From a virus, in the IMG/VR virus record IMGVR_UViG_3300044515_000031, positions 1 to 44,563 of that record: 44,563 bases of DNA. One strand, given 5' to 3'. Position 1 is the first letter of the stretch; the number at the start of each line of letters is the position of its first letter. This document shows, piece by piece, positions 1 through 44,563 of this stretch. The translations under genes were made by a program, and so were the position numbers. The notes beneath the pieces were generated by a model. That model was not told the DNA's origin and did not search any database. It saw only the letters and a list, made by a program, of their open reading frames with translations.

Positions 1-127
1 CTCAGCTTCGCGCAATTTGGGAGCGACGAAAAGGGTTGGGAAGACCGCCTCTGCTTGGAGGTGAGGGCGAGCAATGGTTCGCAGAAGTTCTTCCTCAATG
101 ATCAGGACATGGTCCCCGAAACGTTCG
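1..127. repeat. Terminal direct repeat, copy 1 (identical to 44437..44563); assembly overlap of a circular or circularly permuted molecule
   Basis: Base-by-base comparison of the first 127 nt with the last 127 nt shows identity. An ORF reads through the junction in frame. Confidence 0.95.
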
Positions 128-21660: not shown

Positions 21661-24600
21661 ATGCTCAAGCTCGTGACGCGATCGCTCGCACGCCTCATCT
21701 TCGGACTTCTCATTCTCGGCCTGGCCATCTCCGCGCATGCGCAGTCGCCGCCGACCCTGATCAACTTTCTCGGCTCCGGCTGCTTTAAGGACGCGTCGGG
21801 CACGGCGATCCAGAACGGTGAGCTTCGGATCCAGCCCTCGAGCGCATTCAAGTTCGGCAGCGGCGGCCAGGGATCGTCCGATGTCATCGTTCGCACCATC
21901 ACGGCCGGCAGCATGGATAGCACGCTGCAGCTCGCGAACCCTGCGCTCACTTCGCCGTTGAGCATCGGCTTCACGGTCTGGGTAAAGAACCTCCGCACCA
22001 ACAACGTCGACGTATACAAGAACGTGCCGATCGCGCCAGACGGCAGCGGCAACTTCGACTGGTGCCAGCTGAACACAGGTTTCTATGTCCCCAACGTTCC
22101 GCACGCCGTTCTCGTCGGACCGCCCGGACCACAAGGACCACAGGGAGCCGCCGGCACCGGCGGCACCGGGAGCGGCTTTACGCTACGGGGTGCCTGGGCG
22201 CCATCGACGACTTACGCAGCTGCGGACATTTTGACCAACGGCGGCCAGACTTACGAGGTCGCAACCGGCTTTACTTCGGGAAGCGTCTTCGCCGCCACGA
22301 ATTTATCGCTCTGGGCTGCGAAGGGAGCGGACGGCGCTCCGGGTGCAACTGGATCTGCAGGCGCAACTGGATCTGCTGGGGCCACCGGAGCAACAGGCGC
22401 AACCGGAGCTACCGGGCCAGCAGGACCGACTGGACCAACTGGACCAACCGGATCCGCTGGGGCAACCGGATCCGCAGGGGGAACCGGCGCGACAGGCGCT
22501 CCAGGTGCGAACGGGTCGACGTGGTTTGCGGCGGCCGGCGCGCCATCCAACGGCGCTGACGCTGTAGGTGATTTCTACCTCAACACCACGACAGGCGACG
22601 TGTCGCAAAAAACCGCGCCAACCACATGGACCTTTCGCGAGAACATCATGGGCCCAGCTGGGCCAACCGGACCTACGGGTTCGACTGGAGCCACCGGACC
22701 CACAGGACCGACAGGGCCAACCGGCGCCACCGGTTCTACGGGTGCAACAGGCGCGCCGGGCGCAGGTGGAACAGTAAACACGCAAACGGCGGGCACTGGC
22801 GGCGTCACGGTCAACACGTTTGTATCTACCGACACCTCCGCACCCAGCAAGTTCATCACTTCGGGCCTGGGCTCTGTCGGCAGCGGCGTGGCGCTATCGA
22901 GCGCGGCCGCAAACTCAACCTTCACGCTCTCCGATCCTGTTGGCACGGTCCAGGTCACCACGGACGCGGGCGGCGCGATCGCGGGGCACCTCATCGGTGG
23001 AAGCACGGCCACAGCAGGTCTCGCGATGGACCTGGCCCAGACATCCTCGCTCAACATCTGCATCGAGACGGGGATCTTCGGCACAGCGTTGACCACAGTT
23101 TCAGGCGGAGCACTGGTTACCGTGAATCCGCGCAGTCGGGGGTCCAACGGCCACAAGGTTTGCACGGTCAACGGCACTGCTGTACCCAGCGCAGGCTACG
23201 CTTCAGCTTATGTGACCAGCTTCGCGCGAAGCCTTGACTACACAGCGGTCGGGACTTCGATCACGAACCAGACCGGCGCAAGCAACGTCACTGTGGGTCC
23301 GAACAACACGACTTTTGCCGGTTCGATTGGCTACAGGCTTGGAGGCGTCTTCACAAACGGCGGTATCAGTGGTGGTGAGACGTCGGACATTCAAAAGCTG
23401 GCTATATATCAAATCCCCTATATCCCGGCGAAGCGCGCTCCGCTCATGACCCTTGAGGACGCTACGAACAATGCAAACGAGACGGCCGGCTTCTCTGCGG
23501 CCCGGTGCGCGAGCTCCACGCCAGTGTGTCTAGCCCTCTACAGCATTCAGCACCAGGCAGCGATGGCCTTCATGAGCATCCCGTCGGACAATTACAACGG
23601 CACGACGCTGACGCTGGCCTGGGCTTCAACTACAACCTACCTGAGCGGCGACGTGGCATCTTCGGGTGGCCTCAACTACATCGCCACCGGCGGTGTCAGC
23701 AATGCCGCAGCGAACCTCAACAAGACACCAGCTTCCAATGCGGGTTACTGGTCTATCTATGTTCCGCCGACCTATTACAAGATAGGAGCGCAGACCTCGA
23801 CGAACATCACTGGCGCCTTCATCCCGGACGTTTCGCTCTCGTCGTCGAACGTGAGCAACACGCCGCAGGCGCTGGGAGAAATCTCGTCTGCGAACGGCGC
23901 GAGCATTATGCTCTCGGTGCCGACTCCGGCTGGCAACCCCATCGAGTTCGTCCATCGCATCATGGACGGCAACGGCGGGACAGCGAGTGTCACTATCGAC
24001 GGCTCCGCGCCCTCATCTAACTCCACGATCAATGGGTTCGCGGCAGGAAGCGCCGTCATCAAGTCGTTCTCGCAGGCAAACAATGACACCTATGCGCTGA
24101 TCTCCTACCCCACGACGGCAACGGGCGCGGCTTGCATCCCGGCGACGAGCGCCCTGACGTCCAATGTGGCGACGGTCACCTGCACAACCGCTTTTACTGG
24201 ATCCGTCAATCAGGCTGTTTCGTTTCTGAACATGAACAACCTGGCATTCCTGAACGGGCTGAGCCTCATCGTTCAGTCTGTCTCCGGCACCAGCTTTACC
24301 GTCAACTTCACCCACGCCAATGTTACTTCTGCGGCCGAGGTGAACTATGCGACGGCGACACCCGGTCATGCTTTGCTGGTGACCGTCTCTTCCACGCCGA
24401 CCGATGTGAGCATTACCAACGTTGCCGTCGCAGCGAATGTTGTGACGCTGACAGCGACCAACACTCTGACGGCCGGTCAGTCGATCCTTATCCACGGCCT
24501 CGGAACGGCGACCTTCCTGAACGGCGTGACGCTCAACATCACCTCGCGGACGGGAACGACGATTACGGCGGCTGGCACTGCCAGCGGCGCGGGCAATGGC

Positions 24601-25440
24601 CAGTGGACCCATGCGAGCTATACCAGCGCGGCGGACACGGGAACGGCCTCGGTAAACTGGATTGCTCCGAGCTGGGTGGGGACTTATCCATCGCCATCGG
24701 CTCCGGCAACCTTCGAGGCTCCGCGGCTTTATGTGCTCGGCGTACCGCCGCAGCAGTCCGATGCGAACTCGACGGTGACGGCAGCCTACAACACGCAATC
24801 GTTCTCGGACTTGACGGCGCTGATCGCGCAGGGAGCGCCGCTGGTTTGGGTGGACGTTCGTAACGGCAATGGAGTTATACCCGGCTTGAATCCTGGTACC
24901 GACTTCGACTCCGCACTTCACCCAAACGATCCCGGCCATCGCAAGCTGCACGATCTTGTCGAAGCTGCCGCGCAGGTTCGCGAGAATATCTTCAGGCAGG
25001 TGCTTTTCAACAACGGTAACGGCTCCGTCGCCGCGATCGAGTGTCAGATCACGACTTGCAAAGCGGGAAACGGAGTGCAGGGAGATCAGTCGTATGGATG
25101 GGCGATGAAAGATATAGCCATCACCGGCAAGATAACGGTGACGGCGCAGACTATCTATCTCCCCTCCAACACGGCCTCGACCGCTTACACTGCGACGGGT
25201 TCAGAGAACTCCATCCGCATGACGGCAAGCGCAGCTCGAACCTGCACCCTGGCCGCATCTCTATCCAGTGGCACTTCAATCAACATCAAAGATGCAGCGG
25301 GGACTGCCGGCACCGGCAACATCACCATATCCGTCGCATCGTCAGGAACAATCGACGGGTCGTCGACGCTGGTCATCAATACAAACTTCGGTGTCGCGCA
25401 CGTCAGGTGGATCTCGGCAGGTGTGTACGAAACGTTCTAG
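21661..25440 (+). CDS. Large Sec-signal protein with three collagen-like Gly-X-Y blocks (tail fiber or exported surface protein)
   Basis: 1259 aa. The signal-like N-terminus is MLKLVTRSLARLIFGLLILGLAISAHA/QS. GXY runs lie at 22117-22176, 22324-22515 and 22651-22770. There are internal domain repeats (LNGLSLIVQSVSGTSFTV / LNGVTLNITSRTGTTITA). A terminator follows. Confidence 0.8.
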   Translation: MLKLVTRSLARLIFGLLILGLAISAHAQSPPTLINFLGSGCFKDASGTAIQNGELRIQPSSAFKFGSGGQGSSDVIVRTITAGSMDSTLQLANPALTSPLSIGFTVWVKNLRTNNVDVYKNVPIAPDGSGNFDWCQLNTGFYVPNVPHAVLVGPPGPQGPQGAAGTGGTGSGFTLRGAWAPSTTYAAADILTNGGQTYEVATGFTSGSVFAATNLSLWAAKGADGAPGATGSAGATGSAGATGATGATGATGPAGPTGPTGPTGSAGATGSAGGTGATGAPGANGSTWFAAAGAPSNGADAVGDFYLNTTTGDVSQKTAPTTWTFRENIMGPAGPTGPTGSTGATGPTGPTGPTGATGSTGATGAPGAGGTVNTQTAGTGGVTVNTFVSTDTSAPSKFITSGLGSVGSGVALSSAAANSTFTLSDPVGTVQVTTDAGGAIAGHLIGGSTATAGLAMDLAQTSSLNICIETGIFGTALTTVSGGALVTVNPRSRGSNGHKVCTVNGTAVPSAGYASAYVTSFARSLDYTAVGTSITNQTGASNVTVGPNNTTFAGSIGYRLGGVFTNGGISGGETSDIQKLAIYQIPYIPAKRAPLMTLEDATNNANETAGFSAARCASSTPVCLALYSIQHQAAMAFMSIPSDNYNGTTLTLAWASTTTYLSGDVASSGGLNYIATGGVSNAAANLNKTPASNAGYWSIYVPPTYYKIGAQTSTNITGAFIPDVSLSSSNVSNTPQALGEISSANGASIMLSVPTPAGNPIEFVHRIMDGNGGTASVTIDGSAPSSNSTINGFAAGSAVIKSFSQANNDTYALISYPTTATGAACIPATSALTSNVATVTCTTAFTGSVNQAVSFLNMNNLAFLNGLSLIVQSVSGTSFTVNFTHANVTSAAEVNYATATPGHALLVTVSSTPTDVSITNVAVAANVVTLTATNTLTAGQSILIHGLGTATFLNGVTLNITSRTGTTITAAGTASGAGNGQWTHASYTSAADTGTASVNWIAPSWVGTYPSPSAPATFEAPRLYVLGVPPQQSDANSTVTAAYNTQSFSDLTALIAQGAPLVWVDVRNGNGVIPGLNPGTDFDSALHPNDPGHRKLHDLVEAAAQVRENIFRQVLFNNGNGSVAAIECQITTCKAGNGVQGDQSYGWAMKDIAITGKITVTAQTIYLPSNTASTAYTATGSENSIRMTASAARTCTLAASLSSGTSINIKDAAGTAGTGNITISVASSGTIDGSSTLVINTNFGVAHVRWISAGVYETF
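22117..22770 (+). repeat. Coding triplet repeats (collagen-like GXY), three blocks
   Basis: Blocks are GPPGPQGPQGAAGTGGTGSG; GADGAPGATGSAGATGSAGATGATGATGATGPAGPTGPTGPTGSAGATGSAGGTGATGAPGANG; and GPAGPTGPTGSTGATGPTGPTGPTGATGSTGATGAPGAGG. Confidence 0.9.
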
Positions 25441-25675: not shown

Positions 25676-27121
25676 GTGATGCCCTCTCTTCTCTCTAACT
25701 CCCTAATTTCGCCCTCAAATGTGCGACCACGCCGTAGCCGTGCGACCACGGAAACCGGATGCCATTCGATTCGTGTTGTCCGCAAGGTGAAGATCGCCGG
25801 CCGCTGGGTGTTTGCTACGGCTCCGATCGGAACAAGCGGCCGTCCGGAAGTCGGCTATGTGATCTATCGAGGCGAAAGAGTGAAGGTCGACGGAGGGACC
25901 TTTTACCTGGATAGCGGCAGCAAGCGAACGCGGAAGTCTGTCGCTTGCGGGACGGACCCCGAGGGTGTTTATCGCGCGATGAAGACCCAGGGGCATGTCC
26001 TCGCGCTGCGGCGCAGCGGCATGGACGTTGACGATGCGCCGGAGATCGTCGACAACCGGCGACGCAGCGAAAGCAGCCTCGGCGATGTTTACCAGGAGTT
26101 CAAGGACGCGCCGCCGGGCGGCTTCACCGTCAAGACCGTAAAGAAATACCGCAACGCGCTGTTGACGTTCAAGACTTGGAGCGCCGAGCGTGGCGTGACG
26201 TATGTGTCCGATGTAACGCCGAAACTGATCACGCGCTGGATCTCGCACCTGCAGCATGTTGAAGGCCTCGACGCGAGCACCGTCGTGCCGAAGGTGCGGA
26301 TCGTGATGGCGGAGCTGAAGGCGTACGGCGTCACCATCAAACTAGCCGATCGCGACCTGCCGACGATTGTGGAGCGTGAGCGCGAGATCTATATCGTCGA
26401 GCAGCTCGACCAACTACTGGCCGCGTGCGACCTGGACGAGTACGAGCTTGTCCAGACGTTCCTGCTTACCGGCATGCGCCGCAGGGAAGTGGCGTTTCTG
26501 AGCTATCCCGATATCGACCCGGTGAGCTGCACAGCGAAGGTCACCGCGAAGCGCCAAATGGGCTTCATCCCAAAGGCTTACCACGAGAGGATTATCCCAA
26601 TTCCGCGCTCGCTGGTGGATCTGTTGCAGGCGCGTGGAATCCGGCACGCGACCGACGGCGCCGGCCTGATCTATGGGACCTCGCGAAAGTGGCGCGGCCG
26701 CGGCGGCAAAGCCGATGGGAAACTGCTCGAAAAACTGAAGCAGATTGCCAGGCGGAGCGGGCTGAACTGTGGGCATTGCATCGGGACCTACGAAGGCCAG
26801 CCGGTGACGTGCGCGACGCATGCATGCTGCCGCCGATGGGGGCTGCACAAGTTTCGGCACACCTACGCCACCTCGATGCTGCGGGACAACGTCGATATCG
26901 TGACGCTGAGCAAATGGCTGGGACACAAAGACCTGGCCACTACGCGCATTTATCTTCGAGCTCTCGAAGCGGAGTGGGCACAGCCGCAGGTGGAGCGTTC
27001 GATGCTTGCGGTTCGATTCGGGCAGATGCCGGTACCGGCGGAGCGGGAGACAAAACCGCGAGCGCCGCGTCCGCCAAAAAGAGATAGTCATCCGCGGGCA
27101 GCGGCGGCAGACCTTCCTTAG
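25676..27121 (+). CDS. int: Tyrosine integrase
   Basis: 481 aa. AAGGAG lies 9 nt before GTG 25676 (ATG at 25679). Catalytic motifs are LLTGMRRREV (R), HKFRHTYAT (HxxR), WLGH and TTRIY (Y). Confidence 0.9.
   Translation: MMPSLLSNSLISPSNVRPRRSRATTETGCHSIRVVRKVKIAGRWVFATAPIGTSGRPEVGYVIYRGERVKVDGGTFYLDSGSKRTRKSVACGTDPEGVYRAMKTQGHVLALRRSGMDVDDAPEIVDNRRRSESSLGDVYQEFKDAPPGGFTVKTVKKYRNALLTFKTWSAERGVTYVSDVTPKLITRWISHLQHVEGLDASTVVPKVRIVMAELKAYGVTIKLADRDLPTIVEREREIYIVEQLDQLLAACDLDEYELVQTFLLTGMRRREVAFLSYPDIDPVSCTAKVTAKRQMGFIPKAYHERIIPIPRSLVDLLQARGIRHATDGAGLIYGTSRKWRGRGGKADGKLLEKLKQIARRSGLNCGHCIGTYEGQPVTCATHACCRRWGLHKFRHTYATSMLRDNVDIVTLSKWLGHKDLATTRIYLRALEAEWAQPQVERSMLAVRFGQMPVPAERETKPRAPRPPKRDSHPRAAAADLP
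25721..25749 (+). repeat. Two direct GTGCGACCAC repeats (putative arm-type sites, right arm, inside the int 5' end)
   Basis: GTGCGACCAC occurs at 25721-25730 and 25740-25749. Confidence 0.55.
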
Positions 27122-28086: not shown

Positions 28087-28683
28087 TCACTCGGCCATGA
28101 TCGTGCGATAGAACCTGTCGACCTTCGCCACGCTTTTTGCAGCCATGCGCTTCTTACCGAACTGAATGCTGTTTCCCACCCCGAGGCGGTGTGCCAGCTC
28201 ACATTTGGTAAAGCCCTCTCTGAGCAGCTCCCTGATTTGTTTCCATGCGGGGCTGGCGTCGATATAGGCGCCGTCGCGTGCGGCCTGCGCCGTAACGTCG
28301 AGGATCTTCCGTGAGGTCCGCGCTCGAATTCGCATCCTCCTGCCGCTTTTGATTTCGACGATGATGGTCTCGGCCACGTCGCTGGCTTCCGCTATGGACC
28401 GTCTTCCGACGCCCGCACTCGATAACGCAAGGATGTGCATCCTGGCACTTTCTGCCGAAACGACGCCATTCCAATCCCCGGCCTTCCGAGCGGCCGCACG
28501 CCCAACTTCGTAGGAAGAATTCGCAGCTCGACACTGCAGGCATTTGCAGCCGCCGATATAGCGCATCCGCGTTCCGTGAGGCTTGCTCTGTCCTAGCCGT
28601 TCTGCGTTCTCGGCCAGGTAGTCGGTCCTTATAGCAGCGCGCAGTCTCGAGTCATCTCTGCGATTTACTTCTGAGATATTCAT
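28087..28683 (-). CDS. DNA-binding protein with an HGT..Y..GC.C..C motif and two HTH-like segments
   Basis: 198 aa. Motifs are HGTRMRYIGGCKCLQCRAANSSY, GVGRRSIAEASDVAETII and GFTKCELAHRLGVGNSIQ. The start overlaps the upstream recombinase stop. Confidence 0.7.
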   Translation of the reverse strand: MNISEVNRRDDSRLRAAIRTDYLAENAERLGQSKPHGTRMRYIGGCKCLQCRAANSSYEVGRAAARKAGDWNGVVSAESARMHILALSSAGVGRRSIAEASDVAETIIVEIKSGRRMRIRARTSRKILDVTAQAARDGAYIDASPAWKQIRELLREGFTKCELAHRLGVGNSIQFGKKRMAAKSVAKVDRFYRTIMAE

Positions 28684-29597
28684 GCTCTGCCTCTCTGTCC
28701 TCGTGGGTGGAATTTTGCGTGGGCGTCCTGCAGGTGCCCGGCCGAAACTTTGGTGTAGATCTGCGTCGTCGCGATCGAGGCGTGGCCGAGCAGCTCCTGG
28801 ATGGCGCGGAGGTCGGCGCCGTTCGACAGCATGTGCGTCGCGCAGCTGTGGCGTAGGCGGTGCGGGTACATATTCTCTTCCCCGCCCAGGGCGGAGATGA
28901 TCTGGTGGACGCGCCGGCGCGTGAGTTGACCGCCATGGTTACTGAGTACCAGGGCGCGCTGTTTGCCTCGGCCCAGCTTCAGCAGCTGCGGCCGCGCGTA
29001 GCGCATGTAGTTATCGAGCGCCATGACGGCCGAGTCGCCCAGTGGGACGATGCGTTCCTTGTCGCCCTTCCCTCTTACGCGCGCACTGCCGACCGAGACG
29101 TCGCCCTCGCGCAGGCCGCAGAGCTCGCTGACGCGGATGCCGCCGCCATAGAGCAGCTCGAGGATGGCGTAGTCGCGGATCGCCAGCGTGCCGGCGCCCT
29201 CCATCGACGCGGCCGAGGCGCTGAGCTGGATGATCTCGCGGAGTTGGTCTTCTTCGACCGGGCGAGGCAAACGTTTGGGTAGTTTCGGTGTTACAGCCAA
29301 ACGTGTGGGGTCGACGCTGAGGCGCTCGGCACGAATAAGCCAGCCATAGAACCGGCGCATCGCGGAGAGTTTGCGGGCGCGCGACTGCGGCTTGATGTCG
29401 TGCTTGGCGAGATGCAGGATGAAGTGGGCCACGTCTTCCTTCGTCGCGGTGAACAAAATGGAGTCGCGCTTTTCGAGGATCTCGGCGAACTGAAACAGAT
29501 CCGTCGAGTAGGCGCCGACGGTGTTGGTGCTGAGGCCGCGCTCGATGCGGAGATGGATGGCGTATTCCTGGACCAGCTCGACGTTGCCGTTGGCCAT
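28680..29597 (-). CDS. Tyrosine recombinase, XerC/XerD-like
   Basis: 305 aa. The N-terminus YAIHLRIERGLSTNTVGAYSTDLFQF resembles the XerD core-binding domain. Catalytic motifs are GGIRVSEL (R), HRLRHSCATH (HxxR), LLGH and TQIY (Y). Confidence 0.9.
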   Translation of the reverse strand: MANGNVELVQEYAIHLRIERGLSTNTVGAYSTDLFQFAEILEKRDSILFTATKEDVAHFILHLAKHDIKPQSRARKLSAMRRFYGWLIRAERLSVDPTRLAVTPKLPKRLPRPVEEDQLREIIQLSASAASMEGAGTLAIRDYAILELLYGGGIRVSELCGLREGDVSVGSARVRGKGDKERIVPLGDSAVMALDNYMRYARPQLLKLGRGKQRALVLSNHGGQLTRRRVHQIISALGGEENMYPHRLRHSCATHMLSNGADLRAIQELLGHASIATTQIYTKVSAGHLQDAHAKFHPRGQRGRA

Positions 29598-31778: not shown

Positions 31779-32021
31779 ATGTCGAGCCGAATGCCAGTTA
31801 CGTCCCTCGCCGCGCCAGGATGGCTAACGACGGCGCGGCGTCTCTACCGCTTCATGGACCGTCCGATCGGCTGTTTGAGCTACAAAGCGAAGTTTTGTCT
31901 GGTGTTTTACACGGTCCTGCTGTTGATCGTGCTGTGGGCGGTGTCGTTATGCGATGCCAATTTGCCGGATTCCGGCGCGCTGAACGATTGTCGCGTGGGG
32001 GATCTCCTACTTGAGCGTTAA
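31779..32021 (+). CDS. Small membrane protein (hypothetical)
   Basis: The ORF is open from TTG 31773, with ATG at 31779. It has one strong TM helix, FCLVFYTVLLLIVLWAVSL. Third-position GC is higher than in the competing frame 31682..32014. Confidence 0.35.
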   Translation: MSSRMPVTSLAAPGWLTTARRLYRFMDRPIGCLSYKAKFCLVFYTVLLLIVLWAVSLCDANLPDSGALNDCRVGDLLLER

Positions 32022-33483
32022 GGTGGCAGCAGCAGTACTGGAACGGGGCCCGGAAAATTCCGGCGAACGATTTACTCTCTTCGTCCTGGCTTTCCAGGCA
32101 GACGACCTCGGCTTCTATGCCGAGGAAATAAAGATTCTTCAAAAAGACCTGTCGTGCTCGAAGGAGACGATCCTTCGACATCTGGCCAGCCTAGAGAAGC
32201 AGGGCTGGCTGCGGATCGAGCGGCGCGTTCTCGGCGGGCGAAGCAGCGTGTACTTCGTGAACCTGGAGAAGCTCGGCGTCCGGGTCGGGGAGAAGCCGTA
32301 CAAGCACAAGCTCTGGGCGGATATGGAGCGCATGCGCTCGGCGCTGGACCGAGGTAACAAATTGTCACGTCAGAACGGCACCCTGAAATTCGAGCAATTC
32401 GCGGAATCCGGGGAGGTTGAGGCCAGTGGCGACCTCTTCGAAGAGGAAATCTCAGGTGACAATTTGCCACCTGACAATGAGCAAGAATCTGCTCCTGAAG
32501 AGGGCGAAACAGACGATTCCGAGGAGTTTGAGGCCCAAACCGCCCAAAATGAGGGTGAAACGGTCTACCGGAAGGAACAGGAGCCTCCGGAGGAAGAAAT
32601 CTCAGGTGGCAAATTGCCACCTGTCAGGTACGGAAATAGTCACCTGTCAGGTGGCAATTTACCGGACCCCTTTAATACAAGTCGTAAGAGTCGTACTTTC
32701 GTAGAAACAACTACCCCCCTACCCCCCGTCCCGGGGGATGGCGGCGATGAGTTGATTTTGCCGAAGGACGATCTTCGCGTCGGCGATGCCGAGTTCCCTC
32801 TCGCGATCGGCGTGGCCGCTCGCTGGGTGATGCAAAAACGCGGCTTGTCAAAGCGGCGGCTGCAGGACACCATCGCCGAGCAGCTCGCGCTGTTCTGCCG
32901 GCAGGAAGATAAAAACCTGCAGGAGGCCGCGCAGATCGCGGCGGCGAACCATGAGAAATACACGGCCGACGTTCCCCTGCTCCGCTTCGGGCCGTGGAGT
33001 CCAGCGAATTTTTACGGCGAGGGCCACTGGCGGAATCCGTCGGCGTGGCCATACGACCAGGCCAAGGTCCGCGCCTCGTCCGAGGCTGCGATCGGGATGC
33101 AGAAGCTCGCCGCCAGCGAAACCGACGCCGAGTACCGAGTTCGCGTCGCCGAGTTCATCGACGGGAATGCCGATCGTCTGGCGGAGATCGGCGGCTTCGA
33201 CGGTGTCGTCGCGAAGCTGCGAGCCCTGCCGCAGGAGATGGACCTCGGCGCCCTCGACATCGAGCTCGACGACATCGAGAGCGAAATGATCAAGGCGGCG
33301 TGGGGTAGCTCGGAACCCGCAGTGCTCGCCACGCGGCAAGTCGTCGAAGCGGAGATATCCGTCGAGAAGGGATATCCGAAGGATTCGATCAACCGGCTCC
33401 GGCTCCAGGTCCTCTCCGGTCGCCTGTTCGGCAAACACGAGTTTCCGCGGCTCACGCTGCGCTGCATTCCGCGGAGAACCTGA
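32011..33483 (+). CDS. Replication initiator (N-terminal winged-helix, lambda O-like organisation with internal origin)
   Basis: 490 aa. The start is ambiguous (TTG 32011 or GTG 32023). The N-terminus FTLFVLAFQADDLGFYAEEIKILQKDLSCSKETILRHLASLEKQGWL is an HTH_36/DnaD-like wHTH. Iterons lie in the acidic linker. Confidence 0.75.
   Translation: MSVKVAAAVLERGPENSGERFTLFVLAFQADDLGFYAEEIKILQKDLSCSKETILRHLASLEKQGWLRIERRVLGGRSSVYFVNLEKLGVRVGEKPYKHKLWADMERMRSALDRGNKLSRQNGTLKFEQFAESGEVEASGDLFEEEISGDNLPPDNEQESAPEEGETDDSEEFEAQTAQNEGETVYRKEQEPPEEEISGGKLPPVRYGNSHLSGGNLPDPFNTSRKSRTFVETTTPLPPVPGDGGDELILPKDDLRVGDAEFPLAIGVAARWVMQKRGLSKRRLQDTIAEQLALFCRQEDKNLQEAAQIAAANHEKYTADVPLLRFGPWSPANFYGEGHWRNPSAWPYDQAKVRASSEAAIGMQKLAASETDAEYRVRVAEFIDGNADRLAEIGGFDGVVAKLRALPQEMDLGALDIELDDIESEMIKAAWGSSEPAVLATRQVVEAEISVEKGYPKDSINRLRLQVLSGRLFGKHEFPRLTLRCIPRRT
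32447..32668. repeat. Origin-like iterons inside the rep gene (half-site CAGGTGGCAA / TTGCCACCTG)
   Basis: There is an imperfect palindrome at 32453-32473, a perfect 21-bp palindrome CAGGTGGCAAATTGCCACCTG at 32603-32623, and a third half-site at 32648-32657. CACCTGTCAGGT is repeated at 32618 and 32641. A relatively AT-rich stretch follows at 32666-32715. Confidence 0.7.
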
Positions 33484-33539
33484 GCACCTGGGTACTTAGG
33501 TTCCTAAGCGCCTAAGCACCTAAGCACCCGAAGTTCCTG
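33484..33539 (+). repeat. Iteron cluster A: 7 phased 8-bp units (GYNCYTAR), forward orientation
   Basis: GCACCTGG GTACTTAG GTTCCTAA GCGCCTAA GCACCTAA GCACCCGA AGTTCCTG. The cluster starts 1 nt after the rep stop and ends 44 nt before the parA ATG. Confidence 0.85.
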
Positions 33540-33582
33540 AACTACAGAGCTGTAAACCCATTGAGCACCAGGAGCGTATCGA

Positions 33583-34179
33583 ATGAACCTCACCATAGCT
33601 GGAGATAAAGGCGGCGTCGGCAAGACTACGACGGCGCTGTGCCTGGCAGCGTACCTCAACACGCTGGCCCCGACGCTGCTGCTGGACGGCGATCGCACCA
33701 AGAATGCGGTCAACTGCGCGCGGCGGCGGCTGGACTTTCCGTTCCGCGTCGAGCCGATCGAGGCGGGGCCGATGCTGGCTCGGCAGTTCGAACACATCGT
33801 CACCGACACCGGTCAGTCCCCTACTCTCCAGCAACTGAAAGCGGCGGCCGACTGGTGCGACCTGCTGGTGATCCCGGCGAAGGCGGCGTGGTTCGACACC
33901 AACAGCCTGGCGCAGACGATCCAGTCGCTGCACGAGTTGAAGGTTACGAAGTATCGCGTGCTACTGACCCACGTCGCTCCCGACGAGGCGGCCGAGGCGC
34001 TGGAGCTGCGCCGGCTGCTGGCGTCGATTGGAGCTCCGGTCTTTCTCACCGAGATCCCGCGGCTGAAGGCCTTCAAGAAAGCGGCCGACGCCGGCACGAT
34101 CGTAAGCGCGTCGACGGACAAGAACGGCGCCCGGGCCTGGGCGGCATACGAAGCTGTCGGAAAGGAGCTCGGTCTATGA
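33583..34179 (+). CDS. parA: Small ParA-type partition ATPase (type Ib, ParF-like size)
   Basis: 198 aa with a deviant Walker A (GDKGGVGKTTTA). It lacks an N-terminal HTH. AGGAG lies upstream. Confidence 0.9.
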   Translation: MNLTIAGDKGGVGKTTTALCLAAYLNTLAPTLLLDGDRTKNAVNCARRRLDFPFRVEPIEAGPMLARQFEHIVTDTGQSPTLQQLKAAADWCDLLVIPAKAAWFDTNSLAQTIQSLHELKVTKYRVLLTHVAPDEAAEALELRRLLASIGAPVFLTEIPRLKAFKKAADAGTIVSASTDKNGARAWAAYEAVGKELGL

Positions 34180-34493
34180 AGGATAGAGTCTCGAACCTCG
34201 AAAGCGCATTCGCCGGGATGAGCCGTGCGGCCGAGTCCCCACACGCTCAAGCACCTAAGCGCTCAGGTGCTCAGGTACCTAAGCCCCTAAGCACCGGAGC
34301 GCCTAAGCGCCCAAGCACCCAGGCGCTCCCGCTTCAGGGTACAGGCAAAAGCAGCCATCCCGACTTTGAGGCGTTCAAGGTCTATCTGCGCACGGCCACG
34401 AAGCGGGCGGCCGCGCGGAAGTTCGAGGACGAGACCGGCGGCGACTTCTCGGATCTGTGCGAGAAGCTGCTGGCCGAGTACTTAGGCGCTTAG
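34176..34493 (+). CDS. Small partner protein of ParA (centromere-binding protein candidate, ParG-like size)
   Basis: 105 aa with an ATGA overlap to parA. The middle is an 8-aa-periodic Pro/Lys-rich segment encoded by iteron cluster B. The C-terminal ~45 aa (FEAFKVYLRTATKRAAARKFEDETGGDFSDLCEKLLAEYL) could be an RHH fold. Confidence 0.7.
   Translation: MKDRVSNLESAFAGMSRAAESPHAQAPKRSGAQVPKPLSTGAPKRPSTQALPLQGTGKSSHPDFEAFKVYLRTATKRAAARKFEDETGGDFSDLCEKLLAEYLGA
34243..34338 (+). repeat. Iteron cluster B: about 12 phased 8-bp units, forward orientation, inside the coding sequence
   Basis: ACGCTCAA GCACCTAA GCGCTCAG GTGCTCAG GTACCTAA GCCCCTAA GCACCGGA GCGCCTAA GCGCCCAA GCACCCAG GCGCTCCC GCTTCAGG. 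Confidence 0.85.
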
Positions 34494-34533
34494 GGCGCTA
34501 GGTGCTTAGGTGCCTGAGTACCTAAGCCCCGGA
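34482..34533. repeat. Iteron cluster C: five reverse units (TTAGGNGC type) then two forward units
   Basis: TTAGGCGC TTAGGGCG CTAGGTGC TTAGGTGC CTGAGTAC, overlapping GTACCTAA GCCCCGGA. Orientation switches at GTAC 34518-34521. The cluster spans the stop at 34491-34493 and ends at the SD of the next gene. Confidence 0.8.
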
Positions 34534-34542
34534 AGGAGCGAG

Positions 34543-34758
34543 ATGAAGATAACGATCGAATCAACGGACATCATTACGGACATCGATGGGGTCATGTGCC
34601 GCGTGTGGCGCGGCGTGACCGAACGCGGTGTGCAGTGTGATCTGGCTATCCCTCGGCTGCGTGTGTTGCGTGAAGACGACCATCGGGAGTTTGAAGACGA
34701 ACTGGCGGCGCTGCCTTCAGGCCGGATGCCGCCACGCAATTTCGAGGATAGGTTTTAG
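34543..34758 (+). CDS. Hypothetical small protein flanked by iteron clusters C and D
   Basis: 71 aa. GGAAGGAG lies upstream of ATG 34543. Confidence 0.55.
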   Translation: MKITIESTDIITDIDGVMCRVWRGVTERGVQCDLAIPRLRVLREDDHREFEDELAALPSGRMPPRNFEDRF

Positions 34759-34802
34759 GGGCTTAGGGCGTTAGGCGCTTAGGTACCTGAGTACCTGGGC
34801 GA
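34755..34802 (-). repeat. Iteron cluster D: 6 phased 8-bp units, reverse orientation
   Basis: TTAGGGGC TTAGGGCG TTAGGCGC TTAGGTAC CTGAGTAC CTGGGCGA. This is the mirror image of cluster A. Confidence 0.85.
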
Positions 34803-34817
34803 GAAAGCAGGGAACTA

Positions 34818-35096
34818 ATGGAGAAGGAAATAGCTGTAGTGGCGATGGGTGAGCTCGTACGGGTGATGGTGAAGTCCATCGTCGACGAGCCGAACGAAGT
34901 GACGGTTTCGGTGGATACGCGGAACGTCGGTCGCGTGCTGCTGACCGTGGATGTAGCGCCGAACGACCTTGGCAAGGTGATCGGGAAGCAAGGCAGGAAC
35001 GCGCGCGCGTTGCGAACGATCCTGGGAGCGGCTGGCATGGCCTTCGGAGTGCCGTCGTCGCTGAACATCCGGGAAGGCGACGGCGATGCCCACTGA
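34818..35096 (+). CDS. KH-domain RNA-binding protein (KhpA/YlqC-like)
   Basis: 92 aa. LVRVMVKSIVDEPNEVTVSVDTRNVGRVLLTVDVAPNDLGKVIGKQGRNARALRTIL matches the UPF0109/KhpA pattern, including the GKVIGKQGR (GxxG) loop. Confidence 0.75.
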   Translation: MEKEIAVVAMGELVRVMVKSIVDEPNEVTVSVDTRNVGRVLLTVDVAPNDLGKVIGKQGRNARALRTILGAAGMAFGVPSSLNIREGDGDAH

Positions 35097-35307
35097 CCGA
35101 AAGACGGCCACAGAAAGCCTGGAGATGACTACAGACGTTATCGTCACGGCGATGTATCGCGACTTCGACGATGGTTCCCTGGCGGAGATGTTGATCCACG
35201 GCGAGGAGTTTCCTCCGGAGCCGATCGTGGTGGCGCTGAACAGGTCTATCCAGAAAGAGCTGCATCGCCGGAAACAGGAGCGCGAGGATCTGGAGGCGGA
35301 CCGATGA
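35086..35307 (+). CDS. Hypothetical protein
   Basis: 73 aa. It overlaps the upstream stop and has an ATGA overlap with the next gene. Confidence 0.5.
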   Translation: MPTDRKTATESLEMTTDVIVTAMYRDFDDGSLAEMLIHGEEFPPEPIVVALNRSIQKELHRRKQEREDLEADR

Positions 35308-35507
35308 TCCCGATTCTCAATTCGATCGTGGCGGCGCGCCTGGCGGAGTTCGACGATCTGCTGGCACGGATCGCGCGCGATCGCGCCGAGGCCTGGGCGC
35401 ACAGTCCGGCCGGAACGCAGTATGACAACACCCCGATCCGCGAAGCTGCTCGGTTGTTTTTGAATAGGCGACGGCGCCGGAGAAAGCAGGGAACGGATGG
35501 CCGCTGA
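35304..35507 (+). CDS. Hypothetical protein
   Basis: 67 aa, translationally coupled on both sides. Confidence 0.5.
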   Translation: MIPILNSIVAARLAEFDDLLARIARDRAEAWAHSPAGTQYDNTPIREAARLFLNRRRRRRKQGTDGR

Positions 35508-35742
35508 ATATCTGAGCCGGTGCGCGAGCTGCGCGGAAACGATCAGGCCGAAGGACGGCTTCATCAACACTGGCTGCAAAGACTACTGTCTCAAGCCACT
35601 GTGCATGGCGGCCGCATATGCGTCTGTGAAGTTGCCGCGGGACCGCGTCGCCGGGCTTTCCACGGCCGAAGGCAAGCTGGTCATTCACGTCAACGGCTTC
35701 GACGATGTGCAGTTTGGAGAAGCAAGAAAGGGAAACAGATGA
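35497..35742 (+). CDS. Hypothetical Cys-containing protein
   Basis: 81 aa with CASC...C...C...C. It is coupled to its neighbours. Confidence 0.5.
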   Translation: MAAEYLSRCASCAETIRPKDGFINTGCKDYCLKPLCMAAAYASVKLPRDRVAGLSTAEGKLVIHVNGFDDVQFGEARKGNR

Positions 35743-36110
35743 GCGATCCGAATATTAAAGAATTACTTGAAGAGCAATTACGACTGGCAAAGGATTTTCC
35801 GCGCGCCAACTTCGGGCTTCTCCACGGCCACGACTATCCAGAGATCGCACGCTCGGCTCTAAGCAGCGCCGACGTTTGTAGAGATCTACTCATGAACTAT
35901 GTGATGAGTTCCATTCGATCTGGCGAAGTCGCTGAAAGCATAAACCCCGGGGCTTTCCAAGATTCGCGTGAGATTGTGCAGCGAAATACGATTCTGCACG
36001 ATCAGGCGCTCAAGTACTTATATTTAGGCATTCAAATCGGGCGCGCGCTTGAGAAACAAGTAGCAGAAGCACTGCTATCGCTTGCTGAGGAAGAGAGCAA
36101 AAACCGATGA
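35739..36110 (+). CDS. Hypothetical protein (visibly lower-GC segment)
   Basis: 123 aa with ATGA overlaps at both ends. Confidence 0.6.
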   Translation: MSDPNIKELLEEQLRLAKDFPRANFGLLHGHDYPEIARSALSSADVCRDLLMNYVMSSIRSGEVAESINPGAFQDSREIVQRNTILHDQALKYLYLGIQIGRALEKQVAEALLSLAEEESKNR

Positions 36111-36523
36111 GGACGATTGGGATGAAGCCTGGAGATTTTGTTTTGGTGATTGAGCATCGCGACAACGAGCAGCTTGTCCATAAAGGTCTGGCCGTGAGTC
36201 TTTCGATGGACGAGCAGCTCGCCGGCGCCGACGGTCAGTGCGCGATCACGGCGTCGTTTGTGGGGCCGCTGGGCGGCGTGTCGATCGAGGACGTCGTCCA
36301 CATCTCGCACCGCGACTGGATCGAGGGCCGCGCCGGCCTGGCGTACGAGGATCTGCCACATCCGCTGATGGGCGTTTGCCGCTTCTGTCTCTGTACCGAG
36401 CAGCGCGCGTGCCCCTGCGGCTGCAGCTGGCTCGATCTGGATGGTACGGCGTGCTCGGCGCCGGAATGCAAAGCAAAGTTCATAGCCGAGTACCAGGCGT
36501 TTGGGGAGGTTATCCATGGCTAA
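36107..36523 (+). CDS. Hypothetical protein with a Cys-rich C-terminus
   Basis: 138 aa. The C-terminus reads CRFCLCTEQRACPCGCSWLDLDGTACSAPEC. Confidence 0.6.
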   Translation: MRTIGMKPGDFVLVIEHRDNEQLVHKGLAVSLSMDEQLAGADGQCAITASFVGPLGGVSIEDVVHISHRDWIEGRAGLAYEDLPHPLMGVCRFCLCTEQRACPCGCSWLDLDGTACSAPECKAKFIAEYQAFGEVIHG

Positions 36524-36770
36524 GTCGAAGAAGCTCGTTTGGCGCAAGCGGCCGGAGCCGCACCTACAGATGATCGTGGTTGCATTCCACATTGGCGAGT
36601 GGACTATGGCCGAAGTAGATGAGCCGTGCGTGACCTGCAAATTCGGGACGCTTCGCCGGTTTACGTTTTGCAGTCCAGACTCCTATATCCCAACATCGCC
36701 ACGTCCGTTCCACATGAAATGCGCTCTGAAGAAGCTATTCGCTGAAGCGATAGGAATGAAAATCTCATGA
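36516..36770 (+). CDS. Hypothetical protein
   Basis: 84 aa from ATG 36516, with GGGGAGG upstream. It has an ATGA overlap with the next gene. Confidence 0.5.
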   Translation: MAKSKKLVWRKRPEPHLQMIVVAFHIGEWTMAEVDEPCVTCKFGTLRRFTFCSPDSYIPTSPRPFHMKCALKKLFAEAIGMKIS

Positions 36771-38575
36771 AGAAAAGCCGCCTGCATATATCGAAGAACT
36801 TCAGTTTGCCGATCGATCTCGTGACGTCGACGCAAGCCATCCTCGCCCGCAAGCGCAGTGGCAAGAGCTATCTCGCCCAGGTCGAAACGGAAGAGATGCT
36901 CGAGCAGGGCGCGCAGGTTGGCGTCTTCGATCCGACGGGTGCGTGGTGGGGATTGAAGTCGTCGGCCGACGGTAAGAGCGCCGGCTATTCGATCGTCATC
37001 TTCGGCGGCCGGAACGCCGACGCGCCGCTGGACTTCAGGGCAGGGAAGGCGATGGCTACCGCGTTCCTCGATCGCGGCTTCTCGGCCGTGTTCGATATCT
37101 CGCTGTTCACGCTTCCTCAGCAGCTGCAGTTCGTGATGGAGTTCTGCGACGAGATCCTGCGCGTCAACCGAAATGCTCTGCACTTGGTCATCGATGAGGC
37201 CGATACGTTTGCCCCGCAAACGCCGCGCAGCAAACCCGCCGGCGAATGCCTGGGAACGGTTTCGAGACTGGTTAGCCAGGGCGGCCTCGGCGGCACGGGC
37301 GTGACGATGATCACGCAGCGATCGGCGAAGATCAACTGGGATGTACTGAGCCAGATCGATATATTGACGGTCCTGCGCATGGGAGCGCCGCTTGATATCA
37401 AGCCGGTGGTGTCGTGGCTGCAGACGAACACGACGCCAGAGTTCGCCGCGGAGGTGGGCGCTGCACTGCCGTCGCTGCCTGTGGGAACGGCCTTCATTGC
37501 GTCGGCACACCTGGAGATAGCCAATCGCGTCGAGGTCCGCCAGAAGCGCACATTCAACTCAGGAGCAACGCCGAAGCCGGGCGAACGGAAGATCGTCCCC
37601 AAGGTGTTTGCGGAGGTCGACGCCAAGAAGCTCGGCGAGCAGATCGCGGGGTCGATCGCTGCTGCCAAGGCAAACTCGCCCGACGAGCTGAAGGCGCGGA
37701 TCCGCGAGCTCGAGCGCCAGGTGGCGAGACCGGCCGCGGCGCCGGTGATAGTCCAGAAGCCTGCGCCAGAATCACAAATCGACAAGGAGAATCTGCGGAT
37801 GCTCGTAAAAAAGCTGGATGCACTGAGTCAGGCTGTAAACGAAGCTACTGAGCTGGCCCAGGCAGACGAGGACCGCAGGACGCGCGCCGTTGCTTTGCTG
37901 GCCGAGCTGCAGAAACTCCTAACTCCGCCATCGTCACTTTCCAAGGTTTTGAAAAAAGCGGGGGAGACAAAGGATGTTGCCCAAGCGCTGGTACCGGCGC
38001 AGGTCCGGGAGCGTGAACAATCTGCACCAACTCCCAAGCCTGTCCGTGCTCCGGCACCCGTGCAAGCGGGAGATCGGAGCCTGGATGGTCCCGAGTCGCG
38101 CGTCCTCGATAACATCGCATGGCTCGTGGACAGCGGCGTCGAGGATCCTGAATCGGAGTTAGTGGCGTTTCTCTCGGGCTATAGCACGTCTACTTCGACC
38201 AGTTTCAAGAATCCCCGCTCGAGACTGAAGGAACGCGGGATGATTATCTATCCCACGCCTGGGCGCCTTCGCCTGACTGATGAGGGCAGAGCAGCAGCCA
38301 ATCGCGGCAACGCTCCTATGACGATCGAGCATCTACATGCTGCGATATTTGCGCAGCTCCCTGGCCCCGAAGAAAAAATGCTCCGGCTTTTGTTGGCGAG
38401 TTATCCGGAATCTATTACTTCTGAGTTACTCGCTGAGAAGACCGGGTATTCGACGCCTACTTCGACCAGCTTCAAAAATCCACGCAGCCGGCTGAAGTCC
38501 CTGGGCTTTGCGGAGTATCCAACCAGCGGCGTCGTGCGGGCCACCGAGCTGCTGTTTCCGGCGGCGCTGCGATGA
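36767..38575 (+). CDS. HerA/DUF87-like P-loop ATPase fused to a coiled-coil linker and two tandem C-terminal winged-helix modules
   Basis: 602 aa. Motifs are a Walker A ARKRSGKS followed by VGVFDPTGAWW, a Walker B LHLVIDEAD, and ITQRSAKINWDVLSQIDILTVLRM. Two ~89-aa repeats end in GYST(S/P)TSTSFKNPRSRLK...G. Confidence 0.75.
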   Translation: MKKSRLHISKNFSLPIDLVTSTQAILARKRSGKSYLAQVETEEMLEQGAQVGVFDPTGAWWGLKSSADGKSAGYSIVIFGGRNADAPLDFRAGKAMATAFLDRGFSAVFDISLFTLPQQLQFVMEFCDEILRVNRNALHLVIDEADTFAPQTPRSKPAGECLGTVSRLVSQGGLGGTGVTMITQRSAKINWDVLSQIDILTVLRMGAPLDIKPVVSWLQTNTTPEFAAEVGAALPSLPVGTAFIASAHLEIANRVEVRQKRTFNSGATPKPGERKIVPKVFAEVDAKKLGEQIAGSIAAAKANSPDELKARIRELERQVARPAAAPVIVQKPAPESQIDKENLRMLVKKLDALSQAVNEATELAQADEDRRTRAVALLAELQKLLTPPSSLSKVLKKAGETKDVAQALVPAQVREREQSAPTPKPVRAPAPVQAGDRSLDGPESRVLDNIAWLVDSGVEDPESELVAFLSGYSTSTSTSFKNPRSRLKERGMIIYPTPGRLRLTDEGRAAANRGNAPMTIEHLHAAIFAQLPGPEEKMLRLLLASYPESITSELLAEKTGYSTPTSTSFKNPRSRLKSLGFAEYPTSGVVRATELLFPAALR

Positions 38576-44325: not shown

Positions 44326-44563
44326 ATGGCCAAACTCACCGCGACGATCACGTGCTCGGTCAGGGCCAGCTTTCTACTGCTCTGGTTGAAGCGCTTGGAG
44401 ATCGAAGTTCCTCCGCCTCTCGGCCATCACCATTCGCTCAGCTTCGCGCAATTTGGGAGCGACGAAAAGGGTTGGGAAGACCGCCTCTGCTTGGAGGTGA
44501 GGGCGAGCAATGGTTCGCAGAAGTTCTTCCTCAATGATCAGGACATGGTCCCCGAAACGTTCG
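44326..44563 (+). CDS. 5' part of the junction-spanning small ORF (continues at 128..171 of the window)
   Basis: ATG 44326 follows GGAGG at 44317-44321. See feature 1..171. Confidence 0.45.
   Translation, partial: MAKLTATITCSVRASFLLLWLKRLEIEVPPPLGHHHSLSFAQFGSDEKGWEDRLCLEVRASNGSQKFFLNDQDMVPETF
44437..44563. repeat. Terminal direct repeat, copy 2 (identical to 1..127)
   Basis: Same as copy 1. Confidence 0.95.

Follow-up and report, generated by a model that had tools for sequence, protein, structure and literature searches.

The virus record IMGVR_UViG_3300044515_000031, analysed here over its whole length of 44,563 nt (hereafter the window), carries a compact cassette between its replication initiator gene rep and a gene for a KH-domain protein. 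In this cassette, a small ParA gene (parA) overlaps the gene of a 105-amino-acid (aa) protein, which we treat as the presumed centromere-binding protein (CBP), and four arrays of short repeats with an exact 8-bp period, named A to D, lie around and within these genes (Table 1). Array B lies inside the coding sequence of the CBP gene, where a DNA repeat and a peptide repeat occupy the same nucleotides, and this arrangement is the main subject of our analysis. Related loci, labelled L001-L025, were compared over their retrieved flanks only (8.2 kb in the case of L004).

Table 1. Positions of the cassette features and of other genes discussed in the text, in window coordinates.
Feature	Coordinates	Strand	Description
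Tyrosine recombinase gene 1	25676..27121	+	
Tyrosine recombinase gene 2	28680..29597	-	
rep	32011..33483		O-like replication initiator gene; stop at 33483
Array A	33484..33539		7 box + spacer units between rep stop (33483) and parA start (33583)
parA	33583..34179	+	198-aa ParA, deviant Walker A
Presumed CBP gene	34176..34493	+	105 aa, ATGA overlap with parA stop
Array B	34243..34338		12 in-phase units in linker-coding part of 105-aa gene
Putative C-terminal ribbon-helix-helix (RHH)-like domain, coding region	34359..34490	+	PDFEAFKVYLRTATKRAAARKFEDETGGDFSDLCEKLLAEYLGA
Array C	34474..34533		reverse TTAG, TTAG, CTAG, TTAG, then forward CTGA, CTAA
orf71	34543..34758	+	bracketed by arrays C and D
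Array D	34755..34802		4 reverse TTAG boxes, then CTGA, CTGG
KH_KhpA-B domain gene	34818..35096	+	Pfam PF13083, 1.2e-17
HerA/DUF87-like ATPase gene	36767..38575		two C-terminal winged helix-turn-helix-like repeats (GYSTxTSTSFKNPRSRLK)

Four arrays with an 8-bp period

The initial annotation had placed four 8-bp-phased clusters at this locus, and all four were recovered where it had put them. Each has a lag-8 identity of 0.61-0.65 (z of 5.5-7.5 versus shuffles), and a blind lag-8 scan of the whole window (40-nt windows, lag-8 match of at least 0.6) returned exactly four regions, at 33467-33554, 34240-34339, 34476-34531 and 34747-34804. Dinucleotide-preserving shuffles (n = 100) contained a mean of 0.12 such regions versus the four observed, with a maximum fraction of 0.625 versus an observed maximum of 0.75, and the predicted excess over shuffled background is therefore present. 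Arrays A to D are the only lag-8-periodic DNA of this genome, and in most related loci lag-8-periodic DNA is likewise confined to these arrays. The motif CCTAAG/CTTAGG occurs in 15 copies on both strands of the window, 14 of them within 33495-34783, and 13 of the 14 position weight matrix matches of at least 10 bits fall inside the par locus.

The repeat had been written as the unit GYNCYTAR. While its 8-bp phase holds, it is better described as a 4-bp box alternating with a 4-bp G+C-rich spacer (GCRC, GTAC or GCCC) in a register of exactly 8 bp, the box being CTAA or, in reverse, TTAG, with CTGA, TCAG, CCAA, CCAG and CTGG as weaker forms. Parsed as tetramer boxes, the arrays keep the 8-bp phase exactly even where the orientation switches; a 9-bp phase slip at these switches, as seen with a CTNAG pentamer, was rejected. 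The seven units first counted in array A stand, but they are not all forward, as the boxes read CTGG, TTAG (reverse, at 33496), CTAA, CTAA, CTAA, CCGA and CCTG. Array D similarly has the six boxes expected of it, but only the first four are reverse and the last two are forward. The strong boxes of array B start at 34251, 34275, 34283 and 34299. Array C covers the last codons and the stop of the 105-aa gene (YLGA-stop) as well as the gap to orf71, and array D begins in the orf71 stop codon, upstream of the KH-domain gene.

All four arrays share a module of ~48 bp in which two boxes are joined to four CTAA boxes through a palindromic junction (AGGTACCT or a near variant). The four modules align without internal gaps at a mean column identity of 76%, with A and B oriented one way and C and D the other. 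Arrays C and D are direct copies, 90% identical over 42 nt, and A and D are, as had been noticed from the start, inverted copies of one another (38 nt, 84% complementary). However, the mirrored bracket that A and D form around the cassette is a feature of the window genome and not of the system: D is a window-specific copy of C tied to the extra gene orf71, and relatives have one to three arrays, so the layout is not a conserved one. Given that D is a second copy of C, orf71 sits between duplicated arrays. This small gene, which matched no family in Pfam and PHROG scans, lies outside the conserved cassette; in L001 the KH gene comes straight after the CBP gene, and homologues of orf71 are found elsewhere in L007-L010 and L021. 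Arrays C and D may be recombination sites for the gain and loss of such small gene cassettes.

In related phage loci with enough flank, the gene order is rep, small open reading frames (ORFs), parA and the CBP gene, in most cases followed by the KH gene. Throughout, arrays overlap the 3' end of the CBP gene or lie inside it. Overlap with the 3' end was found in L001, L003, L005, L007-L011, L021 and L025, and upstream arrays orthologous to array A, the presumed operator or centromere, in L001, L007, L009, L011, L012, L018 and L025. L001 has one downstream array only, which together with its KH start is the counterpart of array D and the KH start in the window. In L005/L006 the context is that of a plasmid or an integrative and conjugative element, with a type IV secretion system coupling-protein gene and toxin-type genes (PIN, AbiEii); neither a KH gene nor a HerA-like ATPase was found in their flanks, and the arrays are still present with the CBP gene.

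DNA-level and peptide-level constraint on array B

Array B encodes the 8-aa periodic segment AQAPKRSG/AQVPKPLS/TGAPKRPS/TQALPLQG, exactly as the initial annotation had it. Three perfect units (GCACCTAA three times over) would be read in the CBP frame as the codons GCA CCT AAG CAC CTA AGC ACC TAA, that is, A P K H L S T stop; given that a stop would appear at every third box, a perfect array cannot code in this frame. In all homologues the third box is instead changed to CAA or CAG (glutamine, in 43 of 50 units), yielding the peptide consensus xPKxLxxQ, and every third unit is thus degraded because an in-frame TAA must be avoided.

Within these limits, the coding sequence departs strongly from ordinary codon choice. 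In the repeat regions of eight related loci, proline is encoded by CCT in 40 of 69 cases versus a background of 11% (p ~4e-21), and leucine by CTA or TTA in 24 of 41 cases versus 5% (p ~4e-21). When the same regions were resampled synonymously with the codon usage of the family, lag-8 identity was 0.39 ± 0.04 versus 0.53-0.67 observed, and none of 5000 resamples reached the observed value in any of the eight loci. CCTAAG was found 4-9 times in six of these loci versus ~0.2-0.5 expected, and once in L007 and twice in L010, where the excess is weaker or absent. Over 50 units of 24 nt, conservation follows the position in the 8-nt unit (R2 of 0.72) and not the codon position (R2 of 0.02). Conservation is 76-100% at the third codon positions 6, 9, 12 and 15, all of them on box bases. 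In codon 4 the first two positions coincide with spacer bases and vary freely, giving S, R, H, P, G or N. All QxP[KR] repeats lie within one mod-8 residue phase.

The opposite view, that the 8-aa repeat xPKxLxxQ is itself the selected feature, as a ParA-stimulating or spacer module, and that the periodicity of array B is a by-product of recent tandem duplication with no binding site involved, has some points in its favor. The repeat is recognisable in many homologues with its reading frame always kept, and flexible N-terminal tails rich in lysine and arginine are functional in ParG (PMC3130281). However, a 24-nt duplication explains identity at lag 24 and not at lag 8 or lag 16, the rare codons are systematic, and synonymous positions are more conserved than those that determine the amino acid. 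Residues 1, 4, 5, 6 and 7 of the peptide unit are free to vary while the box nucleotides are not. Homologues that lack an intragenic array (L005, L018 and L022) have non-repetitive linkers of similar length, indicating that the linker sequence itself is not constrained. We therefore consider selection on the peptide highly improbable.

Co-variation between arrays points the same way, since motif variants alter the peptide together with the intergenic boxes. The variant TTAGACGC/TCAGACGC of L010 and the variant GCCTGAGC/ACCCAGGC of L014/L015 each occur in both the intragenic and the intergenic arrays, and CCTAGGAG of L011 is likewise found inside the gene and outside it. Containment of 7-mers was highest within the own locus, at 0.31 for L010 (at most 0.12 in other loci) and 0.37 for L014 (at most 0.25). 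Intragenic arrays are found in phage relatives with several peptide repeats in the linker, and the pattern persists in the L025 homologue, which is only ~39% identical. In L004, eight motif copies lie inside the gene, and the positions orthologous to the upstream and downstream arrays have none over the 8.2 kb available, which leaves the intragenic array as its only candidate centromere in that stretch. Codon bias, resampling, unit-position conservation and co-variation strongly support the proposal, already made in the initial annotation, that array B is conserved as a DNA repeat and not as a peptide.

A candidate type Ib partition cassette

The deduced ParA carries the motif GDKGGVGKTT (Walker A KGGVGKT; MNLTIAGDKGGVGKTT) and matches Pfam CbiA (7.5e-12) and the ParA-like phrog_164 (4e-21). 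Its closest solved relative is PDB 3CWQ, a 209-aa ParA-family protein aligned over the full length (6e-38). It has the properties of a type Ib ParA, namely a length of ~190-310 aa, no N-terminal DNA-binding domain and a KGGxxK[ST] Walker A motif, and, as in type Ib operons, a small gene follows immediately downstream, an order kept in most related loci. The start of this gene and the parA stop overlap at 34176-34179, indicating translational coupling; in L007 and L010 an ORF of ~60 aa lies between the two genes.

The 105-aa protein consists of a conserved N-terminal peptide (aa 1-15; M-NL-DAFAGM in the family), the repeat linker (aa ~22-55), a conserved LPLQGTGKSSHPDFE and a C-terminal strand-helix-helix (aa ~62-105). 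The N-terminal part is disordered and the linker highly variable in length. In the C-terminal domain of ~45 residues, R72, T75, R81, S92, L94, L98 and L99 are invariant or nearly so. The family comprises 12 close homologues and 789 representative clusters at E ≤ 1e-3, and the 105-aa protein matched no Pfam, NCBIfam or PHROG family. An AlphaFold2 monomer has helices at 73-87 and 91-104 that follow an extended segment (coil at 62-72), and a profile alignment (hhalign) places aa 66-105 in register with residues 27-65 of omega (1IRQ), weakly (E 0.02, probability 2%); the ParG and omega query sequences were verified against PDB. The secondary-structure pattern and the conserved R72, T75, R81 and S92 fit an RHH fold, which is plausible.

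The C-terminal domain of the family also occurs in other protein contexts (P0037, P0078 and P0054), fused behind a HicB-like antitoxin domain, fused to an Xre helix-turn-helix domain and upstream of a MazE/AbrB-like domain. HicB antitoxins normally carry a DNA-binding domain at the position that the CBP-type domain occupies in the HicB-like fusion. These fusions suggest a modular unit for DNA binding or dimerisation, and the domain pattern and the HicB-fusion relative fit an RHH-type DNA-binding module. A 487-aa metagenomic protein, P0125, has ~30 tandem 8-aa repeats (QSARAPER) and matches the family profile in its repeat part only; this may be a further case of an ORF that runs through a DNA array of the 8-bp type.

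The TP228 centromere architecture to which the initial annotation pointed is correct. In TP228, an E. coli plasmid, parH and OF contain 12 and 8 degenerate 4-bp ACTC boxes with 4-bp spacers, direct and inverted, which are coated cooperatively by ParG with one dimer per box (PMC3130281). The window arrays are built in the same way, of regular 4-bp boxes and 4-bp spacers with an 8-bp period and boxes in both orientations, and the ParF-ParG gene pair is matched by a small Walker ParA followed by a small presumed CBP with a flexible N-terminal tail and a putative C-terminal dimeric DNA-binding domain. In contrast to TP228, the box is CTAA/TTAG instead of ACTC, the CBP has no significant similarity to ParG (and no Pfam ParG match), one array lies within the CBP coding sequence and another over its stop codon, and the replicon is a phage. 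The likeness to ParFG/parH appears to be one of function, and the cassette is not a member of that family.

Other systems offer partial parallels. RHH centromere-binding proteins require contiguous short repeats, and in pSM19035 omega/parS at least four contiguous repeats are needed for ParA activation (PMC9499535). Like delta-omega-parS of pSM19035 (type Ib, Firmicutes), the window cassette combines a putative RHH protein with contiguous short repeats in mixed orientations and with several arrays that would also be operators; unlike it, the units are of 8 bp and not 7-bp heptads, the pSM19035 arrays are all intergenic, and homology is not established. CBP-binding repeats lie on both sides of the par genes in pB171 par2 (parC1-parA-parB-parC2), as the arrays do here, and in pMF1 parCAB, where ItA/ItB clusters of ~8-bp AGATGTCT-like iterons flank the par genes and extra copies lie inside unrelated ORFs (PMC3235114). 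However, sites inside the CBP gene are not reported for pB171 or pMF1, and no dual-coded peptide repeat has been described for them. MetJ is an RHH repressor that binds tandem 8-bp met-box units cooperatively, one dimer per unit, but it is a chromosomal metabolic repressor of unrelated sequence with no partition role. In the literature that we searched, we found no account of an RHH-type CBP with its repeat-array centromere dual-coded in its linker.

Given this array geometry, the small ParA and the coupled small gene, we consider it likely on sequence grounds that the locus is a type Ib partition cassette in which the 105-aa protein is the CBP and the arrays are a set of centromeres and operators; a type Ib-like segrosome centromere was also the leading interpretation at the outset. 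The same parts can be assigned differently, with the 105-aa protein mainly a transcriptional repressor (omega- or Arc-like), the arrays operators or roadblocks that act on the CBP gene itself as well as on parA, orf71 and the KH gene, and array B kept by gene conversion or as a roadblock instead of as a centromere. A gene start follows directly after each of arrays A, C and D, and the arrays are alike enough to recombine (C and D at 90%). In L014/L015, an array lies upstream of an ATPase gene that directly precedes parA, possibly as one ATPase-parA-CBP operon. Moreover, type Ib CBPs are autorepressors and omega regulates several promoters (PMC3130281; PMC3235114). Against a mainly regulatory protein, the 105-aa type is always paired with a ParA ATPase, usually with translational coupling, L004 has a perfect intragenic array without an intergenic donor nearby, and a sigma-70 promoter scan of 33300-35000 returned zero sites, arrays A, C and D included. 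We regard such a protein as unlikely, also given that operator and centromere roles coincide in type Ib systems and are not mutually exclusive.

Hardly any credence, in our view, attaches to the boxes being read by another factor, be it the HerA-like ATPase, Rep (with the arrays as origin iterons) or the KH protein acting on CUAA tetramers of the transcript. Array A does abut the rep stop, the ATPase gene of L014/L015 stands between array and parA, and the KH gene is a conserved neighbour, found as a KhpA/KhpB-type gene downstream of the par cassette in L001-L004, L007-L011, L014, L022 and L025. KH domains read ~4 nt of single-stranded nucleic acid. However, arrays are present without a KH gene within the flanks in L005/L006 and L018-L020, and across loci they consistently fall within the CBP gene or across its 3' end. 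The ATPase, which had been put forward speculatively as the reader, was rejected, since homologues occur in L014/L015 (342-2081) and L003 (7260-8966) but none in the retrieved parts of L001, L002 and L004, which all keep arrays. Iterons for Rep were rejected as well: repeats of another kind occur within rep itself (AGGTGRCAAWTTGCCACCT, three palindromes of ~20 bp at 32452-32663), no array adjoins rep in L004, and it is the CBP gene, not rep, that the arrays accompany.

Several observations weigh against a type Ib partition cassette and an intragenic centromere. The match of ParA to NF041546 (5.6e-19, 68.5 bits) is below the NCBIfam equivalog cut-off of 180 bits. The structural models are weak, as the AlphaFold2 monomer has a predicted local distance difference test (pLDDT) score of 57, and Foldseek with this model returned meaningless matches in PDB. 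Two RHH domains joined in one chain by the natural linker, a construct intended to impose the dimer, gave helices at the same pLDDT of 57 when folded without an alignment and are uninformative. Omega gives the best alignment of the C-terminal domain, though a weak one (profile matches with E 0.001-0.02 and probability 2-21% overall), ParG (1P94) aligns with helix 2 only (E 0.0087-0.021, probability 2-5%), and a PDB-sequence profile search with the 105-aa family found nothing relevant. The spacers are G+C-rich here and AT-rich in parH. Because the scan above detected no promoter, the operator role of array A is read from position only. Gene conversion between arrays could add to the likeness of B to A, C and D, and the loci share ancestry, so that the conservation statistics overstate independence. 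Given two tyrosine recombinases in the window and, in relatives, an integrase beside a small HTH_17 gene alongside rep and par (L001 1-964; L003 1-992), these phages may integrate, replicate as plasmids or do both, and the extrachromosomal, partition-requiring state is putative. Finally, we infer binding of the boxes by the CBP, operator activity, stimulation of ParA and stabilisation of the replicon by analogy with known systems.

If the cassette does work in partition, each 4-bp CTAA/TTAG box would be occupied by a single CBP dimer, and runs of contiguous boxes spaced by 8 bp would be covered cooperatively, in the manner of TP228 ParG on parH/OF and of omega on its heptads. Arrays covered in this way would act as centromere, and array A, upstream of parA, would probably also be an autoregulatory operator. 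The N-terminal peptide, held on the flexible linker, would engage nucleoid-bound ParA-ATP and stimulate its ATPase, and the replicon would thereby be positioned. Array B lies in the very stretch of the CBP gene that codes for this flexible linker; given that the linker would tolerate almost any sequence, the DNA-level demand for a box every 8 bp would dominate, and the linker would be a readout of the array in three frames per 24 nt, with the third box changed from TAA to CAA or CAG to keep the frame open.

We hypothesize, with the chances about evenly divided, that the CBP linker is a literal three-frame translation of its own centromere, dual-coded in the gene of its binder, with every third box sacrificed to avoid a stop. 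If true, expansion or contraction in 24-nt steps would alter the tether length along with the valency of the centromere. New box specificity would entail parallel changes in the linker and at the intergenic sites, which would provide a built-in route to new incompatibility groups, and some phages like L004 may have the intragenic array as their only centromere.

Genome context and meaning

A 127-bp exact direct repeat at the termini (window 1-127 = 44437-44563) shows that the window is a circular, complete genome assembly of ~44,436 bp. Its G+C content is ~62%, and its genes are those of a lambda/HK97-like siphovirus, with a portal, a capsid-protease fusion, a tape measure, a J-like tail protein and a tail fibre as well as small and large terminase, two tyrosine recombinases and Xre-type regulators. 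The tail-fibre gene (21661..25440) matches, among others, a collagen-like minor tail PHROG and contains internal tandem repeats of 9, 18 and 27 nt at 22345-22724. A DNA search of 32000-36800 against the GenBank phage collection gave zero matches. Relatives are known from metagenomic contigs and one Acidobacteriaceae metagenome-assembled genome only, and the latter hints at the host; the window probably represents a temperate phage (or phage-plasmid) of Acidobacteria.

The rep gene has an internal array of its own. Three copies of a ~20-bp palindrome (AGGTGRCAAWTTGCCACCT), at 32452-32476, 32602-32629 and 32640-32663, sit in the part that codes for an acidic linker, where they encode EEISGDNLPP, EEISGGKLPP and LSGGNLP. 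These probably form a replication origin embedded in rep, comparable to ori-lambda, an array of binding sites inside O, the gene of the protein that binds it (PMC5043065). The palindromes would be a possible second site array within a linker-coding region of the window genome. For array B, the lambda case is an analogy only, as ori-lambda is a replication origin with 19-bp sites and without commensurate dual coding of 8 bp and 8 aa.

RHH-type partition centromeres are usually treated as intergenic arrays, while here a centromere-like array lies inside the coding sequence of its presumed binder. Codon usage and amino-acid choice visibly give way to the DNA constraint, making this a clean natural case of a linker shaped by the need for DNA-binding sites. 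It also suggests how a cis site can be accommodated within a gene in very compact cassettes, which may be of use in engineering. The KH-domain protein is a possible RNA-binding partner of the repeated CUAA transcript. For annotation, low-complexity 8-aa repeats beside parA can flag hidden centromeres, and the unannotated family of ~100-aa proteins to which the presumed CBP belongs (789 representative clusters) looks like a set of partition adaptors of a group of phages and plasmids.

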